From the sequence record PQ306574.1: DNA of 64,000 nucleotides; one strand, written 5' to 3'. This DNA comes from Escherichia phage vB_EcoM_PTE-Eco09. Position numbers and translations under genes: made by a program. Within the stretch, counting starts at the first letter, position 1, and every line of letters starts with the position of its first letter. The notes under the pieces were generated by a model. The model saw only the letters and a list, made by a program, of their open reading frames with translations, was not told where the DNA came from and did no database searches. Positions 5,527-35,893 of this stretch are shown in pieces.

Positions 5527-6126
5527 ATGAAAGAACTTGAATTAAAATACTATGCACACTCACAAATTGGCGTCGAAACCATCTGTGATTTGTGGGTGGC
5601 AATGTATGACGGGTACAATCTCTTAGACCGAGATAACATATTAAAACACGAATTTTATTATGATACCGAAGATCATGCGCTACGTCAAAAAGGAATTTAT
5701 GCACGACTTGACTGTAGAAAATCAGAGATCATGGTCAAAATGGGTGATAATGAATCTGGACTATTCAACCGCGAGGAAATGACATTTTCAAATTGGGATG
5801 AGTTCGTCCATTTTATTGATAGTCTAGGGGTAAACTCCGACTATATCACTGCAATAATGCAAGTAATGACATATCGCAAGTCATTGACTCTAGATATGGG
5901 TTGTGGTATAGTGGAAATGTGCAAAGACACTTTCTATTATGGCAAAGTAGGCGAAGGATTGGGAAACACTGCTCATTATGAACTTGAGTTCGAGTTAAAA
6001 TCAGGTGATGAAAAAGCACTTGACATTATCCGAGAAATGATGCTAGAATATGTTGGTGACGATTTAAGTCCTAGCGAAATTTCAAAAGCTGAACGTGGTT
6101 TTCAATTAATGACGAAAGAGGGTTAA
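5527..6126 (+). CDS. CYTH-like (triphosphate tunnel metalloenzyme) domain protein
   Basis: 199-aa ORF beginning MKELELKYY (ExExK signature) with C-terminal acidic HYELEFELK motif; inserted between rnh and dsbA-like gene relative to T4 order. Confidence 0.45.
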   Translation: MKELELKYYAHSQIGVETICDLWVAMYDGYNLLDRDNILKHEFYYDTEDHALRQKGIYARLDCRKSEIMVKMGDNESGLFNREEMTFSNWDEFVHFIDSLGVNSDYITAIMQVMTYRKSLTLDMGCGIVEMCKDTFYYGKVGEGLGNTAHYELEFELKSGDEKALDIIREMMLEYVGDDLSPSEISKAERGFQLMTKEG

Positions 6127-8433: not shown

Positions 8434-8461
8434 TTGACATGCTTATGTGGTAATGTATAAT
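8434..8461 (+). promoter_or_regulatory. early sigma70-like promoter (TTGACA-16-TATAAT) with conserved leader
   Basis: TTGACA 8434-8439, TATAAT 8456-8461, then conserved GCACACATCGAAACA leader and SD. Confidence 0.6.
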
Positions 8462-8491
8462 GCACACATCGAAACAATGGAGGATAAAAAT

Positions 8492-9706
8492 ATGTTAGTA
8501 CGTCAAGCGCATGAAATTGAATGGACTAAGGAGAAACATAATTGTAGAGCGAAAAGCCCAACAGATTTTTATGGTAAAATTTTAGAAATATGTAAAACAG
8601 AAAATTTAGTTTTTGTCGGCTTTGTTGGGGAATGGGAAGGAAACAAAACAAAAATAAAACTTATCTGCGAACATGGTCATGAATGGATATGTTCGATAGA
8701 TAAATTTGTAAGTAAAGGAACAAGATGTTCTCATAAACAATGTAAAGGTAAACGAATATCTAAAAAATTGTCTATATCCGAAACGGAATACAAAACGAGA
8801 ATTTTAGAAATATGTGAAACTGAAAATCTAATTTTCTTAGGTTTTGTTGGTGAATGGAAAGGGTGTGATACTAAAATTCGCATAAAATGCAAATACGGTC
8901 ATGAATGGGATGTATCTATATATAGCTTCACAAAAATGAATACCAGATGCCCTACATGCGCAGGACAGAACAGGACAAAAGACGAATACAAAACGAGAAT
9001 TTTAGAAATATGTGAAACTGAAAATATAATTTTCTTAGGTTTTGTTGGTGAATGGAAAGGATGCCGCACAAAAATAAAACTTAGCTGCAAACACGGTCAT
9101 GAATGGATATCTTCCATATTATGTTTTGTGTATCAAAATACTCGCTGTCCTGTATGTGTTGGTAGATTGTCTATCGACGATAGAATGATACAGATTAATC
9201 AAGTTTGCAATTCTTTAGGTTATGTAATAATTAAGATCCACGAAGAATGGAAAAACACAGAAACTAAAATTGATGTTAAATGTTTATGTGATTATATATG
9301 GACAACAACAATACATAGAGTCATACATGGGACTACAGGTTGCAGAAAGTGTGCTACACATGGATACAATACAAAAAAATCGGGGACTCTTTATATACAG
9401 AAATTAACCAACGATGATTCCTTTGTTGGTGTGAAATTTGGAATAACAAACAGAGACACGAATGAACGAATGAAAAACCAATCATCAAAGTCTAAATTCG
9501 ACCATGAGATCTTTTATGAATTGACTTTACAAGACGGTCAAAAGATCTTAGAATTAGAGAACAAGATCAAGAAAGCGATGAAAGGTAAAACTTCCTATAT
9601 CTCAAAAGAAGATATGCCGGATGGCTGGACCGAAACAGTAGCGCCGTCTGAATTGAGCACTATCATGTATATCGTAAAAACTTTTGAAAAAGAGTTGACA
9701 GCGTAA
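8492..9706 (+). CDS. protein with three tandem Cys/His zinc-ribbon-like repeats and C-terminal T5orf172/GIY-YIG-superfamily-like domain
   Basis: Repeated block YKTRILEICETENxIFLGFVGEWKGCxTKIxxxCKxGHEW...TRCPxC three times; C-terminus LYIQKL...FVGVKFGITNRDTNERMK resembles T5orf172; occupies the segG position between 32 and frd. Confidence 0.5.
   Translation: MLVRQAHEIEWTKEKHNCRAKSPTDFYGKILEICKTENLVFVGFVGEWEGNKTKIKLICEHGHEWICSIDKFVSKGTRCSHKQCKGKRISKKLSISETEYKTRILEICETENLIFLGFVGEWKGCDTKIRIKCKYGHEWDVSIYSFTKMNTRCPTCAGQNRTKDEYKTRILEICETENIIFLGFVGEWKGCRTKIKLSCKHGHEWISSILCFVYQNTRCPVCVGRLSIDDRMIQINQVCNSLGYVIIKIHEEWKNTETKIDVKCLCDYIWTTTIHRVIHGTTGCRKCATHGYNTKKSGTLYIQKLTNDDSFVGVKFGITNRDTNERMKNQSSKSKFDHEIFYELTLQDGQKILELENKIKKAMKGKTSYISKEDMPDGWTETVAPSELSTIMYIVKTFEKELTA
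8578..9150 (+). repeat. intragenic tandem repeats (about 200-225 bp units, 3 copies)
   Basis: Near-identical stretches such as ACGAGAATTTTAGAAATATGTGAAACTGAAAAT...TTTCTTAGGTTTTGTTGGTGAATGGAAAGG at about 8801 and 8999, and a diverged copy at about 8578. Confidence 0.7.
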
Positions 9707-11144: not shown

Positions 11145-11414
11145 ATGAAAGTCGGTATTATTCAATTATGGACGGCTACCAGTGAAAACTACGCAGTAGC
11201 CGTAGATTATTACGGTTTACAATATCTCTATGATGAAGCGAGCGCATCATGGCTTCCTGTGCAAGAAAATAGCGATATCTCAAGACCTGCTACTATATTC
11301 GACCGTGGCGTTGTCTTTATCGATATTGACGAGACAGTAGCAAAACTGCGTAAGAAAGCAATCAACAAGAAAAAGGTGATGTGGGATGAAAGAATATTTG
11401 AAACTATTGCGTGA
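11145..11414 (+). CDS. hypothetical protein (frd-td intergenic ORF)
   Basis: ORF with ATG at 11145 overlapping td start; no recognisable domain. Confidence 0.35.
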   Translation: MKVGIIQLWTATSENYAVAVDYYGLQYLYDEASASWLPVQENSDISRPATIFDRGVVFIDIDETVAKLRKKAINKKKVMWDERIFETIA

Positions 11415-12606
11415 TGTTCTCGATAATGGCTGGCCTCGTGAAGATCGAACGGGGGTAGGTACGCTCTCTAAATTCGGCGCAGAGATGCGAATTGACTTAA
11501 GCAAGGGTTTCCCATTACTGACCACTAAAAAGATGGCTACAGCCTCTGTAATTGGCGAATTGCTATGGTTTATGGAGGGATCACTTGACCGCCGTCGCTT
11601 ACAGGAAATTACACGCGGTAAGTTTGACGAAGAAGCCTTCGACATTTGGCGCGGCAACTGTCTTGATATGAAAGAAAAGAATCCTTTGCGATTCAATGGT
11701 TATAATGTCGGCAATATGTATGGTATGGCGTGGCGACGCAAACCGATTCATCCACACGGTGAAATCAAAATTAAGCGCGTTAAGAGCAAATATACACATA
11801 CATTTAAGCACCCGTGGGTAGAAGACTTTACGCCAACCAATGAAACAGAAGACCGTTTATGTGCTATCTGGCGTGGTATGCGTTATGAAGAGTTTGATTA
11901 TATTCTGGTAGCAGACCACTGGAAGACTCAATCTAATTTTGTTAATGATGCATATTGCTTGTGGGGATTCCAGGAATGGGTAGATGATGGTTATTTCGGT
12001 TATCTGCTTGATAGTGATTATCTGGGTGGGGATATTATAGCACCGGATACCACGATGTTTGTTAGTATGGACGTAGACACATCAAGCACTAAAGACGATG
12101 AAGAATATGTCTATCGCCCGAAGATTTGGGAAGACCAGTTACAAAACGTGATCGAACAAATTAAAAACAATCCAACGGATCGCCGGATCATTATTGACTC
12201 ATGGAACGTACAAGGAACACATAATGCTGTATTAGGTGTATGTCATCCTTTCGTGCAATTCTACGTCAATGAAGGTAAACTGTCTTGTATGTGGTTTCAG
12301 CGAAGCGTAGACAGCTTTTTAGGCTTGCCCTTTAACGTCGCCAGCTATGCGCTGTTAACTCACATCATAGCGAAAATGTGTGATCTTGAGGTAGGAGAAC
12401 TGATTTTCTCTGGTGGAGATACTCACATTTACAAAAACCATTTTGATCAAGTCATGGAACAGTTAAGCCGTGTTCCGTTTGATAAACCAACAATTGAGTT
12501 GCCGGAATTTAAATCTTTAGATGAGGTATTGACAAAGACTCCGAAAGACTTTAAAATTCACAACTATCAAAGCCATCCAGCGATCACCGCTCAAATGGCA
12601 GTATAA
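11386..12606 (+). CDS. td: thymidylate synthase with large in-frame insertion
   Basis: Canonical ThyA blocks (DRTGVGT, FPLLTTKK, ELLWF, DRRIIIDSWN, CHPFVQFYV, LSCMWFQRSVD, FLGLPFNVASYALL, GDTHIYKNH) but 406 aa versus about 264-286 aa for typical enzymes. Confidence 0.9.
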   Translation: MKEYLKLLRDVLDNGWPREDRTGVGTLSKFGAEMRIDLSKGFPLLTTKKMATASVIGELLWFMEGSLDRRRLQEITRGKFDEEAFDIWRGNCLDMKEKNPLRFNGYNVGNMYGMAWRRKPIHPHGEIKIKRVKSKYTHTFKHPWVEDFTPTNETEDRLCAIWRGMRYEEFDYILVADHWKTQSNFVNDAYCLWGFQEWVDDGYFGYLLDSDYLGGDIIAPDTTMFVSMDVDTSSTKDDEEYVYRPKIWEDQLQNVIEQIKNNPTDRRIIIDSWNVQGTHNAVLGVCHPFVQFYVNEGKLSCMWFQRSVDSFLGLPFNVASYALLTHIIAKMCDLEVGELIFSGGDTHIYKNHFDQVMEQLSRVPFDKPTIELPEFKSLDEVLTKTPKDFKIHNYQSHPAITAQMAV

Positions 12607-23535: not shown

Positions 23536-23859
23536 ATGACCGTTAAAACTCCTAAAGCACTTGGTGACTATGTGATCATTGAAGCTAAAGCAGAAAGCGC
23601 AGGGACAGAAGTAAAAAGCTCTATGGGGATCATTATTGAGCAAAAGCGCACTATGGGCGAGATTCCGCTGGTAGGTAAGATTATTGATATCGGTGAAACG
23701 GTAGATAAAGAATTGCTGGGTAAAACTGTTTTACTGCCACATGGCAAGATGAATAAAGTTCCTCATCCAGACGTTATTAACGGCGTTAAGAAGGAAGAAG
23801 AGATCGACCTGAAATGGACTGTAACACACAAACAGAATATTGTGGTAGTTTACGGTTAA
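23536..23859 (+). CDS. 31: head assembly co-chaperonin (gp31-like)
   Basis: 107-aa ORF; GDYVIIEAK...GIII..K...GEIP..GKII..G..V and KVPHPD resemble recalled T4 gp31; position after cd. Confidence 0.7.
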   Translation: MTVKTPKALGDYVIIEAKAESAGTEVKSSMGIIIEQKRTMGEIPLVGKIIDIGETVDKELLGKTVLLPHGKMNKVPHPDVINGVKKEEEIDLKWTVTHKQNIVVVYG

Positions 23860-23870
23860 TGATTTTAAAC

Positions 23871-23899
23871 GGCGGGAAATAATCCCGCCTATATTTTGG
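23871..23899 (+). terminator. intrinsic terminator
   Basis: GGCGGGA-AATAA-TCCCGCC hairpin followed by T-rich tract. Confidence 0.6.
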
Positions 23900-23940: not shown

Positions 23941-24108
23941 TATGAAAACTATGAATGTAAACATCCACGAAATCCATACCGAAGTATTCACCGAAGAAGA
24001 CCAGTTTGGTGTATGGGTAAATCCTCATTCGATTACTATCGATATTCCTAATGACGATTATGATCCGTTCTCTCTGATTAGCGAGATTAGTTTTAATGAC
24101 TTCTGAAA
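23941..24108 (+). CDS. hypothetical small acidic protein
   Basis: 55-aa ORF with SD; overlaps start of next gene. Confidence 0.25.
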
Positions 24109-24575
24109 TTGATATCTATGCGGGTGGACCTTATCCATCGGGTGAATTGAGTAATTTCAATAAAAGACCATTCCGTCTATTTGGTTGCGATATTAACAGC
24201 ACAGAAGGATTTTTACAGGGGCTAAGATTTAAGAACCCTCAGAGACAAAGAGAAATCTTTTTGATGCACGGTGGCAAAGCAAAAAGAACCGGAAGAACTG
24301 AAAAGATTGAGAATCACCTGTTATATTTTCAGGGTCGCCAGATTCATCGAATGAGTGAGCATTATTACAGACTGGTACATCTGGCATTTGTTACGATGGC
24401 ACGGAATAACCCAGAATTTTGTAAAGCATTACTCGCTACCGGAAATAAGAAATTACGTCATAGTATAGGTGGAACTGATCCGTTAAAGACTATATTGACT
24501 GAATCGGAATTTTGTAGTATCCTCAATGATATTCGTGAACGTTTAACAAAACGAGGTGAAAATGTCAATTCTTAA
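24096..24575 (+). CDS. NADAR-domain protein (YbiA-like)
   Basis: GGPYPSGELSNFNKRPF...STEGFLQGLRF...MHGGKAKRTGR...CKALLATGNKKLRHSIGG resembles NADAR/YbiA signature blocks (SNF, SEHYFQAxKF, LLAT). Confidence 0.6.
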   Translation: MTSEIDIYAGGPYPSGELSNFNKRPFRLFGCDINSTEGFLQGLRFKNPQRQREIFLMHGGKAKRTGRTEKIENHLLYFQGRQIHRMSEHYYRLVHLAFVTMARNNPEFCKALLATGNKKLRHSIGGTDPLKTILTESEFCSILNDIRERLTKRGENVNS

Positions 24576-26058
24576 TATCATTAATCAGCTTGCAGCAACA
24601 GACAAAACATCGCTGAAAGAAAAGATTCTGAAAGAATCAGCAAGCAATGAAACGCTGAAAGAATGCTTTTATCTGGCATATTGCAAACAGGTTACGTTTG
24701 GCGTAAAGAAATACGATAAACCGTCTCGCTATTCGTCTGTATTGTCTTTATCCGGTGCATTACAGGTCTTTAAAAATAAACTTGCCACGCGTCAAGTAAC
24801 TGGTAATGCAGCATTACAACTAGTTACCGATACTCTGACTTGCTTGTCAGAGGATGATGCTAAAGTTGCAATGATGGTCCTGAATCGTGATCTGGAATGC
24901 GGCTGTTCCGCTACCACTGCAAACAAGGTATGGAAGAAACTGATCCCCCAGCAACCGTGCCACCTTGCATCGTCATGTTCTGATAAGACTATTGCTAATA
25001 TCAAGTATCCGGCGTATGCACAACTTAAAAGCGATGGCGCTCGTGGTATGGCTGATATTGACGGGGAAACATTAGCAATCTATACCCGCTCAGGTAATAC
25101 CTATCAAGGGCTTGATGATTTGTTTGCGGTTTTAGAGCGTCTACGAGGCCGTGGAATTGTTCTAGATGGCGAATTGGTATATATGCCTACCCTTTCGCAA
25201 ACACCAGCGCAGAACTTCGTTGAAAGCGTTTATGATGGTACTCTGTCATGGATATTTGAAGAAGAGGAAATGCCATTAACGCCAGTAGCGGAAGCAGTGA
25301 AAGAATCCGTTGTTGCAGATCGTCAGACCGGAAATGGTATCCTCAACAAATCACTTAAAGGAACTATTCCAAAAGAAGAAGCCCAATGTATTGTTTACAC
25401 TGTCTGGGATGTTATCGACCGTGATGTGTATTACGGAAACGAGAAAGCAACGAAGCAATATAAAGATCGATTCGAAGAACTAAAACAGATTGTTGAAGAA
25501 CTTAACGATCCTCGTGTTCAGATCATCGAAAACACTGTAGTTAACAATATCGATGAAGCTCGCGAAGTATATCATCGTTATGTCAACATGGGCTTAGAAG
25601 GTATTATCCTTAAAAATTTACATGGTGTATTTGAAGATCGCCGTAGTAAAGATCAGGTTAAATTTAAAGAAGTGATTGACTTCGACGCGGAAATTGTTGA
25701 TGTATATCCGCATAGTAAAGACCCCAATAAGGTAGGCGGTTTTACTGTCCGTAGTGCGTGCGGACGAATGATGACTAACACCGGATCGGGATTAACCGAC
25801 ACTACAACCGAAAAAGGTGATGATGGTATCGAACGTGTAATTCCGTTCGATCGTCGAAATGAACTCGACCGAGAAATGTTATGGGCTGACCGTCATAACC
25901 TGATTGGAAAAGTCATTGAGATGACATGCAACGGGTATATCCGCAGCAAATCACGTAAAGAAGATGAACCGGAGTTCTCTTTATTTCTCCCAATCATCAA
26001 ACGTATTCGCTACGACAAGACCACTGCAAATACAGTAAAAGAGGTATTCGATGTGTGA
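24562..26058 (+). CDS. 30: ATP-dependent DNA ligase
   Basis: Long matches to recalled T4 ligase (LTGNAA, RDLECG, ANKVW..LIP.QP..LASS, PAYAQLKADGAR, GIVLDGELVY, ASNGI.NKSLKGTI.KEEAQC, IENQVVNN.DEA, GLEGIILKN, RSK..FKEVID.D..IV..YPH.KDP.K.GGF, GSGL, LFLPI..R.R.DKT.ANT). Confidence 0.9.
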   Translation: MSILNIINQLAATDKTSLKEKILKESASNETLKECFYLAYCKQVTFGVKKYDKPSRYSSVLSLSGALQVFKNKLATRQVTGNAALQLVTDTLTCLSEDDAKVAMMVLNRDLECGCSATTANKVWKKLIPQQPCHLASSCSDKTIANIKYPAYAQLKSDGARGMADIDGETLAIYTRSGNTYQGLDDLFAVLERLRGRGIVLDGELVYMPTLSQTPAQNFVESVYDGTLSWIFEEEEMPLTPVAEAVKESVVADRQTGNGILNKSLKGTIPKEEAQCIVYTVWDVIDRDVYYGNEKATKQYKDRFEELKQIVEELNDPRVQIIENTVVNNIDEAREVYHRYVNMGLEGIILKNLHGVFEDRRSKDQVKFKEVIDFDAEIVDVYPHSKDPNKVGGFTVRSACGRMMTNTGSGLTDTTTEKGDDGIERVIPFDRRNELDREMLWADRHNLIGKVIEMTCNGYIRSKSRKEDEPEFSLFLPIIKRIRYDKTTANTVKEVFDV

Positions 26059-26527
26059 TAATGAAGGGGCGAAAGCCCCTAAACCTAAAAAATTGTCAAA
26101 GAAAGAGCAACGCCAGATCCTGAAAATGAAATATGGTGGACGTTGTGCCTATTGTGGCGAGGAACTAGGGGATCGCTGGCACGCGGACCACATCAAACCA
26201 GTATTGCGACGCTCAAAGGTAGTCTATGATGAAAATGGACGAATTGCCCGTAATGATGATGGATCATGGAAATATAAGGTTGTAGGAATGCATAAACCGG
26301 AGCATGATATACTTGATAACATGAATCCGGCGTGTGTGCAATGCAATCTTTATAAAAGCTGTATGGGCTTAGAATACTGGCGTAAGTGTATACGCGAGAA
26401 CTTCCAGAAGTACATTCAGCGCAATATGGGATTGCGAGCGGCTAAACGCTTTGGCTTGCTGTCAATCCACGACCAGCCAGTAGAATTTTATTTCGAAAAG
26501 TACGATCGCGAGCATCAAGAAAAATAA
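26051..26527 (+). CDS. HNH endonuclease
   Basis: Cys pairs and HNH core: CAYCG...WHADHIKP...N...CVQCN. Confidence 0.65.
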   Translation: MCDNEGAKAPKPKKLSKKEQRQILKMKYGGRCAYCGEELGDRWHADHIKPVLRRSKVVYDENGRIARNDDGSWKYKVVGMHKPEHDILDNMNPACVQCNLYKSCMGLEYWRKCIRENFQKYIQRNMGLRAAKRFGLLSIHDQPVEFYFEKYDREHQEK

Positions 26528-32939: not shown

Positions 32940-34991
32940 ATGTTTAACTTAGAAATCGACGATCTAATGATTGAATCTTTCGAGAAATGGCTGTTGACGG
33001 AAGAGGAAGAAAACTTTGGCAGTATTGCTCCTGTACAGTGCTTAAAGCCTAAGCAGAATCCTAAACAGCTTTTTGCAGTACAGACACGCGATAAAGATGT
33101 GATTGTCCGTCTTTGCAACTTCACCAACAAAACACCTAAAATCATTCGTATGGGTGACAAGACCGCACATGTTGTACTGTGCGAAATGAACAAAAGCGGT
33201 CGTATTGTACAGCTTAAAAATGGTCTAGGCGATAACCCGATTGCAGTTATGTCAAGTGCTTTTGATGTGGTTATGGAAACAGCCCGTAAAGCGCAATTAG
33301 ACGCTGTTATGTTCCGTTTTAACGTATCCCGCATGAAAGGTAAGACCGAACTGGTTAAGCGCGTTATAGAGCGTTTGGTGCGTCGTACACCGAAGTTTGA
33401 AGTATTCCAGCAGGAAGTAATGACCAGCAAAAAGATCGCTTTAGTTGTTGTCAAGCGTCGCGGTATGGCGATTGATAAGATTAAAGGGATTAAACTTGAT
33501 GATTCCTTGTTCACTAAAGTAGAAAGTGATTTAGGTGATCGCTGGGTATCTAAGGCTACTGGTGAATCTCTGACTAAAGATGAGGCATATGCGGCTAGTC
33601 TTGTGTCAGAAGAAGAACGAAACGCGGAAGCGGAACAACGCGTAGCGGCTAAATCTCGTTTGACTAAAGAAGAAATGCTGAAAACTCAAGCGACCTATAA
33701 CAGCGACTATGTGAATCATCCAGAAAAAATTAATCTTAAACCGGAAGAAGATATCACCGAAGCCGAACCTAAGAAACAGTTTAATACTCTGATTGATCGT
33801 CAAGCCTTAGAACGTTCAACCGCCCGTTCTCTGAATGACTGGACAAGTGATATTATCACTCGCTATGGTTTCATGCGTACTATTTTTGAAAGCGAAGCCG
33901 ATGCAAAATACGCAGTAAGCGAACTGGTAAAAGTTCAGGATCAATATGATCCGTTGTCTGCGGAAGTTATCGCAGCATCAATCAAACGCTTAAAAGAAAT
34001 CATGAGCGAGGAAGTATTCGAAAACAAGATCACCGCCCGGGCAATGGATCGAGTAGACCAGTCTATGCCAGCAGATGTAAAAGCTGAAATGCTGCGTAGT
34101 CATATCACCCAGATTAAAACCGATGCCCTACGTAATGTTGCGTCCGGTATGTTTGAAGCAATTGCTAGCAACATGGGTGAAATGATGGCAGATATTGATC
34201 TTGATCTGCCAGGCGCGGAAGGTTTTGTGTTGAGCGAATATGCCGATGCAGCATACATCAATATGAACAACTTCCTAACTGATCGTAAGCTGGAAGAGTT
34301 TGAAGGCATCGCAGATCCAGAAGAATTGGTCAAGATGTGCGATGCACTGGATAATGCCTTCTCCAACTATGGCGTTAAACTTGATCCGGGTACTATTCTG
34401 TATCGTGGTATGGACTTCCGGTCGCAAATGTGGGAAACTGCACGTAAGCAAAAAGCGTTTTACTTTAAAAACTATGTGAGCACTTCCCTTGCACCTAACA
34501 TTTTTGGCGGCTGGAATGCAAACGTGGCTAGTGCCGTTGCTGGTGTTGATTCTATGGCTGGCTCTCGCGGTGAAGGTGGCGCTAATGTTGCTTTCTCCAT
34601 TGCTGGCGCGGAAAACATCCCTGTATTGCCAGTAGGTAACAAAGCATTTGCTTACAAAGAATGCGAGATTTTACTTCCTCGCGGTGTTGTGTTATCCTTT
34701 GATACGGTAACTCGTGCTACGGCATCGACGGATTCACAAGAAACTTATTACATTGAGGCACATATTATGAACAAAAATGAACTGGCAGCATTACAAGAAT
34801 CTGGCGAGATGATCGCGGACGGTGATGCATTCATCCGTGAAGGTGTTATTAAACCTGCTTCTGACCTGTCTTTCTCCAGCTTTATTACCGAAGCTAAAAC
34901 CGAACGTAAGAAAGCAGATAAGGCAACTCTACGTCAGCTTATCGCTGATCTGGTATCTGTAGACGCAATGCCAGATAAATTTAAAATGTAA
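32940..34991 (+). CDS. alt: ADP-ribosyltransferase Alt-like
   Basis: 683 aa (T4 Alt about 682); C-terminal ART triad R (LYRGMDFR), STS (YVSTSL), ExE (KECEILLPRG); position next to baseplate gene 54. Confidence 0.8.
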   Translation: MFNLEIDDLMIESFEKWLLTEEEENFGSIAPVQCLKPKQNPKQLFAVQTRDKDVIVRLCNFTNKTPKIIRMGDKTAHVVLCEMNKSGRIVQLKNGLGDNPIAVMSSAFDVVMETARKAQLDAVMFRFNVSRMKGKTELVKRVIERLVRRTPKFEVFQQEVMTSKKIALVVVKRRGMAIDKIKGIKLDDSLFTKVESDLGDRWVSKATGESLTKDEAYAASLVSEEERNAEAEQRVAAKSRLTKEEMLKTQATYNSDYVNHPEKINLKPEEDITEAEPKKQFNTLIDRQALERSTARSLNDWTSDIITRYGFMRTIFESEADAKYAVSELVKVQDQYDPLSAEVIAASIKRLKEIMSEEVFENKITARAMDRVDQSMPADVKAEMLRSHITQIKTDALRNVASGMFEAIASNMGEMMADIDLDLPGAEGFVLSEYADAAYINMNNFLTDRKLEEFEGIADPEELVKMCDALDNAFSNYGVKLDPGTILYRGMDFRSQMWETARKQKAFYFKNYVSTSLAPNIFGGWNANVASAVAGVDSMAGSRGEGGANVAFSIAGAENIPVLPVGNKAFAYKECEILLPRGVVLSFDTVTRATASTDSQETYYIEAHIMNKNELAALQESGEMIADGDAFIREGVIKPASDLSFSSFITEAKTERKKADKATLRQLIADLVSVDAMPDKFKM

Positions 34992-35068: not shown

Positions 35069-35893
35069 ATGTTCAAGAAATTACAGGATTTTCGTATTTC
35101 AGAAGAATCACGCGAATCAATGATGGAACGTATGGATAATTACATCGAAACATATGACATTGAGGGGATTAATGGTTACATGATCACTGAGATGATCAGT
35201 GATCAGATTAACTTTGATGATTATGTGAAGGTTATCCGCTTCCTTGAGCGCGAGACACAAGATTATGGATTTGTCAAGAAAATCATTAATGTGATGTATG
35301 AAGTACACTCCGAAGAATTTGGAGATAATGTATTCAAACATTACAAACATAACAACATAACCCCAGCAGAATATAATGCAATCTGTGATTATGTGTCTGA
35401 ACAATACGAATGGGTAAATGGTGCTCTCTTAGGGGAAGAAGACATGACCGATGAGATATCAGAGATTGTCGATTTGATGGATTGCGTCATGGATAAAACC
35501 GAAAAGTTAAACGGTACTCTTTATCGAGGTCAACATCTTGACATTCAGACAATAGAGCGTATCATTGAAGATAAGGAGTTTACCTTTAAAAACTTTGTAT
35601 CTACCAGCATGACACCGATCATATTTGGAGGATGGCTATCAAACAGCACTAGCCTTTATTGTGAGAATCGATATGAATCAATGACCGGAAAGATGCAACA
35701 TTCTTGTAATGTATCATGGGTAATTGACGTAAAAGATCATAAAGGTTTTGTTGTTGGGTCAATTGCATGGAACCCTTGCGAATGTGAAGTAATTTTACCG
35801 CGAGGGACTTGCGTCAAGGTAAACGACGTAGTAGAATCTTTCGGCGATGAGAATCGTAGACAATTTACAATTTTCGGTGAGGTGACTAAATGA
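35069..35893 (+). CDS. second ADP-ribosyltransferase (Alt/Mod-like paralog)
   Basis: 274 aa; R (LYRGQHL), STS (FVSTSM), ExE (CECEVILPRG); catalytic region similar to C-terminus of upstream Alt. Confidence 0.7.
   Translation: MFKKLQDFRISEESRESMMERMDNYIETYDIEGINGYMITEMISDQINFDDYVKVIRFLERETQDYGFVKKIINVMYEVHSEEFGDNVFKHYKHNNITPAEYNAICDYVSEQYEWVNGALLGEEDMTDEISEIVDLMDCVMDKTEKLNGTLYRGQHLDIQTIERIIEDKEFTFKNFVSTSMTPIIFGGWLSNSTSLYCENRYESMTGKMQHSCNVSWVIDVKDHKGFVVGSIAWNPCECEVILPRGTCVKVNDVVESFGDENRRQFTIFGEVTK

Follow-up and report, generated by a model that had tools for sequence, protein, structure and literature searches.

Gene content and organization of the locus

The window analysed here is a stretch of 64,000 nucleotides from Escherichia phage vB_EcoM_PTE-Eco09 (PQ306574.1). 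At 24096-24575 on its plus strand lies an open reading frame (ORF) whose product is a predicted ADP-ribosyl-guanine DNA glycohydrolase. The genes and signals of the locus are listed by coordinates, strand and description.

23536-23859, plus strand: gene 31, GroES-like head-assembly co-chaperonin (phrog_931, head morphogenesis / Cpn10-like, E=8.5e-37; RB49 annotation)
23871-23899, plus strand: terminator-like GC hairpin with T-run after gene 31 (consensus match only)
23942-24106, plus strand: 54-aa ORF, gp31.-1 or ORF215c of RB49 (phrog_15277, E=3.7e-42)
24096-24575, plus strand: gene 30.3, adfN ortholog, 159 aa, ATG start, single-domain phage-type NADAR
24562-26058, plus strand: gene 30, ATP-dependent DNA ligase (PF01068, E=2.8e-22; phrog_114, E=1.4e-141; start from the RB49 annotation)

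The ATG at 24096 is backed as the start of gene 30.3 by the alignment with the N-terminus of T4 gp30.3 and by the GenBank record of RB49, in which gene 30.3 begins at the same position. This start overlaps the end of the upstream 54-aa ORF by 11 nt, and the 3' end of the gene overlaps the ligase gene by 14 nt when the latter is read from ATG 24562, as annotated in RB49; the ORF listing of the window gives GTG 24556 as the ligase start instead. The translation of gene 30.3 contains SNF at residues 19-21, STEGFLQGLRF at residues 35-45 and LLATG at residues 112-116.

Over a 2.6-kb segment that includes the ORF, 59 phage records match the window at 98-99.5% identity. All of them are RB49-like coliphages (Krischvirus, Straboviridae), among them RB49, JSE, Phi1 and Delraymugoa. 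A protein identical to the ORF product is encoded in one record, vB_ESM-pEJ01, and gp30.3 of RB49 differs from it at 2 of the 159 residues. The RB49 and JSE records list the ORF as gene 30.3 and its product as 'conserved hypothetical protein'; in RB49 the designation 30.3 goes back to the first record of that genome.

The genes around the ORF, all on the plus strand, follow the order pseT, cd.2, cd (dCMP deaminase), 31.1, 31, 54-aa ORF, 30.3, 30 and HNH endonuclease. The corresponding order in T4 is cd, 31.2/31.1, 31, rIII, 30.9 to 30.4, 30.3', 30.3, 30.2, 30.1, 30 and alt, and in Acinetobacter phage AM101 it is cd, 31.1, 31, rIII, three small ORFs, 30.3, 30.2 and 30. Because 30.3 holds the same place between genes 31 and 30 in T4, RB49 and AM101, it is regarded as standing at its ancestral position. 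An earlier note on this DNA had pointed out the ORF and its three sequence blocks, all of which are present in the ORF listing and the translation, and had described the gene as inserted in an accessory slot between gene 31 and ligase; the two flanking genes are as given there, whereas the insertion does not hold in view of the shared position. In T4, genes 30.2 and 30.1 precede the ligase gene, whereas here both are lacking and 30.3 directly abuts it. To judge from these gene orders, the Krischviruses have lost most of the other small ORFs of the interval and retained 30.3. The 30.3 homolog has a different location in two further phages, an Aeromonas T4-like phage and a Caulobacter jumbo phage.

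Homologs of the 54-aa ORF were found only in the 59 Krischvirus-type records, and the ORF is probably co-translated with adfN. It was considered as the counterpart of T4 30.3', which has an analogous overlapping position, but the two show no similarity and are unrelated. As a phage cofactor has been proposed for T4 AdfN, the 54-aa ORF is a candidate partner of the NADAR. Little weight is given to the hairpin at 23871-23899, since such sites are no commoner in the region than in shuffles; in the promoter and terminator scan of the region the counts were not above those of the shuffles, and no promoter is claimed.

Several other genes of the window were noted. The HNH endonuclease gene (26051-26527, plus strand; PF01844; phrog_2118, E=7e-55) overlaps the ligase stop and looks like a free-standing homing-type endonuclease; at this place T4 has a small unrelated ORF, followed by alt. 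Two tandem ADP-ribosyltransferases (ARTs) are encoded in the early-gene block of the NADAR, about 8-11 kb downstream of 30.3. The first is Alt-like and has 683 aa (32940-34991, plus strand; phrog_802, E=9e-180); the second has 274 aa (35069-35893, plus strand; phrog_15144, E=3e-197). The thymidylate synthase ORF (11386-12606, plus strand, 406 aa) matches its Pfam model in two stretches, the best being residues 250-406 against profile positions 110-266, a pattern that points to more than 100 aa inserted in frame within the protein, as compared with the model; td of RB49 is similarly long (1233 nt). Between gene 32 and frd, a protein of 419 aa (8447-9706, plus strand) matches PF21817 (E=2.7e-31) in four CapR-homology stretches and also has a zinc-finger-like domain of the treble-clef type (DUF4379), and RB49 carries at this place the longer hypothetical ORF239c of 485 aa. 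Between rnh and gene 59 lies the gene of a CYTH-domain protein (5527-6126, plus strand; PF01928, E=8e-7).

Family assignment and orthology

In the Pfam search the ORF product matches PF08010 (Phage_30_3, Bacteriophage protein GP30.3) with 129.6 bits against a cut-off of 36 (E=9.5e-38); the match spans residues 13-148 of the product and positions 2-138 of the 138 positions of the profile. PHROG 652 is matched with E=5.5e-45, and BLASTP aligns the product with gp30.3 from a T4 record along the whole length at 38% identity (E=1e-28). By these comparisons the resemblance to the gp30.3 family is judged to be far beyond chance, and given the PF08010, BLASTP and fold evidence it is very unlikely that the PF08010 and T4 alignments are artefactual. 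T4 gene 30.3 (adfN) has its Krischvirus (RB49-group) ortholog in ORF 24096-24575.

A significant match to the general NADAR model PF08719 had been proposed beforehand as a check and was not reached, the ORF product scoring 16.7 bits (E=0.0093) in the Pfam search, below the gathering threshold of 35.1. The link to the NADARs is provided by PF08010 as a sister family, by the fold described below, and by A2, a profile built from the alignment of 81 single-domain members of the gp30.3 family, which finds YbiA (E=1.8e-4) and aligns the SNF and E..Q..K motifs correctly with each other. With PF08719 below threshold, the product is therefore filed at the level of the NADAR superfamily, via PF08010 and the fold, and not as a member of PF08719. 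A single-sequence search of PDB chains returned no NADAR match and only a spurious one to DltA (E=7e-4), and NCBIfam and PADLOC gave nothing usable, with NF053876 ('NADAR family anti-phage protein') scoring 14 bits against a cut-off of 240.

Homologs of gp30.3 were detected by tblastn in 1509 phage records, mostly from T4-like phages of Escherichia, Klebsiella, Shigella, Aeromonas, Acinetobacter and Vibrio. A word-indexed homolog search yielded only 12 proteins; conservation was judged instead from an exhaustive search, in which 971 homologs at E<=1e-3 were recovered among 1.8 billion cluster representatives.

Fused or duplicated gp30.3-type NADARs occur among the metagenomic homologs (P0016, P0019, P0021, P0038, P0053, P0061, P0068, P0094, P0125, P0128 and P0157). 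Fusion partners include a calcineurin-like phosphoesterase (metallophosphatase), BspA-type LRRs and an alpha/beta hydrolase, as well as a prolipoprotein diacylglyceryl transferase (LGT) that is possibly a gene-call fusion. One architecture of about 470 aa recurs, with an N-terminal region of 310 aa that carries no annotation, and in tandem duplications the catalytic Glu is lost in one copy, where it is replaced by N, A or Q. Neither an ART nor a DarT is found among the domain-fusion partners of these metagenomic homologs, and the fusions are uninformative on function.

Active-site residues and predicted fold

Conservation was scored in 166 aligned rows, made up of the 150 best representatives and close relatives. 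The residues and elements discussed below are located as follows.

24150-24158, plus strand: SNF motif S19-N20-F21, NADAR N-terminal strand (S19 in 156 and N20 in 158 of 166 rows)
24204-24206, plus strand: E37 (GAA), catalytic Glu position, placed by pairwise alignment with T4 (Glu in 160 of 166 rows)
24225-24227, plus strand: R44 (AGA), position of the phosphate-coordinating Lys (Lys in 151 and Arg in 10 of 166 rows)
24459-24461, plus strand: H122 (CAT), last-strand His that marks phage NADARs (His in 158 of 166 rows)
24501-24566, plus strand: C-terminal alpha-helix, residues 136-157 (DSSP on the model)

In the profile search the SNF of the ORF is aligned with the SNF of YbiA and of the P. 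nicotianae NADAR. E37 is equivalent to E36 of T4, E88 of the E. coli C7 NADAR and E43 of P. nicotianae; together with H122 it is invariant in alignment A2 (81 members), and Q41 is kept in 154 of the 166 aligned rows. R44 takes the place of K43 in T4, K95 in C7 and K50 in P. nicotianae. This assignment is unambiguous, since the Glu and the basic residue are spaced by seven, as in E36/K43, E88/K95 and E43/K50. Alignment of the catalytic residues, the other check named in the earlier note, thus gave a divided result: E37 and the phage-type H122 are kept, whereas the phosphate-binding Lys is replaced by Arg.

Arg at position 44 is also present in P0002, a relative of 69% identity, and in gp30.3 of Acinetobacter phage AM101. 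It occurs further in P0018, P0030, P0121, P0122 and P0141, which are 38-45% identical to the ORF product and retain the E, Q and H. Owing to this recurrence in relatives, the Arg looks like a tolerated lineage trait and not like a lesion.

The AlphaFold2 model, for which a 12-sequence alignment served as input, is confident (mean pLDDT 93.6, pTM 0.88), and its top three Foldseek matches are the three structures that the T4 AdfN study reported for its own model. As modelled, the ORF product takes the NADAR alpha+beta fold. The product can be aligned to T4 gp30.3 as far as the last T4 residue, and this alignment, with the helix modelled at residues 136-157, indicates that the helix missing from RB69 is present in the ORF product.

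Published function and comparison with known NADARs

NADARs were described by Schuller et al. (2023) as antitoxins of DarT1, which ADP-ribosylates the N2 of guanine in DNA. The key residues given in that study are a Glu, a phosphate-coordinating Lys at +7 and, in the last strand, an acidic residue whose place is taken by His in phage NADARs. Its K95R variant of the E. coli C7 DarG1-NADAR kept hydrolysis in vitro and lost the rescue of cells from DarT1.

The resistance of T-even phages to DarTG1 was mapped by phage crosses to gene 30.3 by Johannesman et al. (bioRxiv 2024; Nat Commun 2025; PMC11257639 / PMC11825919), and T4 gene 30.3 was renamed adfN, for 'anti-DarT factor NADAR'. In that work T4 adfN was necessary and sufficient against DarTG1 during infection, the substitutions E36A and K43A abolished counter-defence, and purified T4 AdfN stripped ADP-ribose from DarT1-modified DNA. 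The RB69 allele is inactive owing to a frameshift by which the last 15 residues, and with them the terminal helix, are lost, and RB69 is DarTG1-sensitive (PMC11257639 / PMC11825919). T4 AdfN is fully effective only in T-even infection and may need a putative T-even phage cofactor (Johannesman et al., Nat Commun 2025). In an independent transposon screen, T4 30.3 insertions were lost specifically on DarTG1 hosts. Purified T4 gp30.3 also hydrolysed guanine-ADPr DNA in vitro in a separate study, in which uninfected cells were not protected (Toxins 2024, PMC11125620); activity in vitro was shared by the NADARs, while their protection in vivo differed strongly (PMC11125620). All NADAR families tested also take G-ADPr off RNA. 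The panel used for DarTG1 resistance comprised T2, T4, T6, RB69 and Bas35-47, none of them identified as a Krischvirus in the text consulted, and the literature search turned up no paper in which a Krischvirus allele was tested on DarTG1.

T4 gp30.3/AdfN resembles the ORF product in its family membership (PF08010 and PHROG), its single-domain size (152 against 159 aa), its Glu, its His and its C-terminal helix, and differs at the phosphate-binding position, where K43 of T4 stands against Arg. The closest relatives outside Krischvirus are the gp30.3 proteins of Acinetobacter T4-like phages (e.g. Lazarusvirus AM101 orf204), with 45-49% identity. AM101 gp30.3 shares the STEGFLQGLR motif including the Arg, and its gene has the same 31 ... 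30.3 ... 30 order, whereas in the Acinetobacter phages this interval still contains rIII, 30.2 and a number of small ORFs, and the host belongs to another genus.

The last-strand residue is His in the gp30.3 type, Glu in the YbiA type and Asp in the DarG1 type. DarG1 NADARs (BC4488-type; G. lovleyi 8bat, E. coli C7) have the Asp in place of the phage His, an N-terminal helix and beta-sheet extension, and an adjacent darT1. The ORF product, in contrast, has His, starts at the core and consists of the core domain only, and its gene has no adjacent toxin or ART gene, the neighbours being gp31.-1 and DNA ligase; it thus falls outside the DarG1 subfamily. T4 AdfN for its part is unable to replace DarG1 in uninfected cells. 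YbiA and the eukaryotic and standalone NADARs (PF08719) carry Glu in the last strand where the ORF product has His, which sets the latter apart from the YbiA type as well. YbiA has been described as an N-glycosidase of riboflavin intermediates and gave no protection from DarT1 in vivo (PMC11125620). NADAR-Bas32 of T5-like phages and NADAR-Bas60 of Vequintavirinae are, like AdfN, phage-encoded and directed against DarTG1, but they were acquired independently, fall outside the gp30.3 cluster and neutralise DarT1 even without infection, which T4 AdfN does not.

Predicted function and alternative explanations

We hold with good confidence that the ORF product is an AdfN ortholog that erases DarT1 guanine marks from phage DNA. 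Orthology, the NADAR fold, the retention of the Glu, the His and the C-terminal helix, and the syntenic position are demonstrated here, and from T4 we infer that the Arg-bearing Krischvirus allele would do the same job as T4 AdfN. Points against the full reading are the identity to T4 of no more than 38%, the sub-threshold score with PF08719, the Arg at the position of T4 K43 together with the in vivo failure of C7 K95R, and the possible need of T4 AdfN for a T-even cofactor.

The setting would be the infection of a host that carries the DarTG1 toxin-antitoxin defence. DarT1 would ADP-ribosylate the N2 amino group of guanines in the phage DNA, with a block of replication as the consequence. 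AdfN would then bind the ADP-ribose, with the pyrophosphate at R44 and the distal ribose between E37 and H122, and would hydrolyse the ribose-guanine bond, so that ADP-ribose would be released, the base restored and replication continued. The protein would act as an 'orphan antitoxin' that does not bind the toxin.

Krischvirus-type phages differ from T4 in their unmodified cytosine DNA; RB49 lacks the hydroxymethylase, and its cytosines were found to be unmodified by restriction digest. The suggestion that AdfN prefers hmC DNA was made by Johannesman et al. in bioRxiv 2024 and dropped in Nat Commun 2025 after an experiment with T4-GT7, in which adfN dependence persists on unmodified cytosine. 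A requirement of AdfN for hmC DNA was also considered here and is ruled out by the adfN dependence of T4-GT7 (Nat Commun 2025). Since a T4 with unmodified cytosine still needs adfN, unmodified DNA of the RB49 type is no obstacle to AdfN.

Among the alternatives, the one that survives best concerns R44: the product may be a true gp30.3/NADAR ortholog that is weakened or retuned by the Lys-to-Arg change at the phosphate-binding position. A retuned version may be poor against C7-type DarT1, or suited to another DarT1 lineage, to a pierisin/ScARP-like or YarT-like toxin, or to ADP-ribosylated RNA. The position is that of T4 K43, whose Ala mutant kills T4 AdfN, and Arg is found there in just 10 of the 166 aligned rows; C7 K95R works in vitro and fails as an antitoxin in vivo, NADARs that are alike in vitro differ strongly in in vivo protection, and the removal of G-ADPr from RNA by all NADAR families tested is consistent with a shifted target. 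We nevertheless consider a weakened or retuned enzyme unlikely. The charge at position 44 is conserved, the K95R data come from another NADAR subfamily with extra N-terminal elements, and the recurrence of Arg in AM101 gp30.3 and in the five relatives of 38-45% identity, all keeping E, Q and H, together with its presence in the 69%-identical P0002, fits a tolerated, selected state.

A main substrate other than DNA, namely a soluble ADP-ribose derivative or an RNA-repair by-product (NAD+/ADPr-derived immune signals), was proposed for phage NADARs on contextual grounds by Iyer et al., and 30.3 does lie in a block with the RNA-repair and nucleotide-metabolism genes pseT, rnlA and cd. This reading is highly improbable, as the proposal predates the T4 experiments on DNA de-ADP-ribosylation and the DarTG1-specific conditional essentiality, and the searched literature yielded no experimental support for it with a gp30.3-type protein. 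A housekeeping N-glycosidase like YbiA, with intermediates of the riboflavin pathway as substrates, or an enzyme that erases the marks set by ARTs of the phage itself (Alt and the second ART), is scarcely to be expected, since the last-strand Glu that defines YbiA is His in the ORF product, the reported NADAR activity is on base-linked ADP-ribose (guanine or cytosine N-glycosidic bonds) whereas Alt-type ARTs modify arginine in proteins, and the T4 deletion phenotype is specific to DarTG1.

Significance

The function of the gp30.3 family was published in 2024-2025 and is already known, so that the reading of this ORF as AdfN is a rediscovery. The earlier note, which had proposed a NADAR-like enzyme that reverses DarT-type guanine ADP-ribosylation as a phage counter-defence, recovered this published function from the sequence alone, and its proposal is upheld by the orthology with T4 gene 30.3/AdfN. 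What is gained is an annotation: adfN (phage NADAR, anti-DarTG1) replaces the 'hypothetical protein' of most related GenBank records, and past annotation the significance is little.

It is conceivable, if doubtful, that the natural Arg branch of the Krischvirus and Acinetobacter-phage proteins is a functionally distinct AdfN variant, differing in potency, target range or cofactor dependence. Such a variant could be directed at other DarT1 lineages, at other guanine- or cytosine-directed ARTs or at RNA. Its setting would be a phage whose DNA is unmodified and in which a clade-specific 54-aa partner ORF overlaps the adfN start. Because K95R in C7 splits in vitro activity from in vivo protection, the natural Arg allele of the Krischviruses would be a convenient probe of the efficacy of NADARs in the cell.
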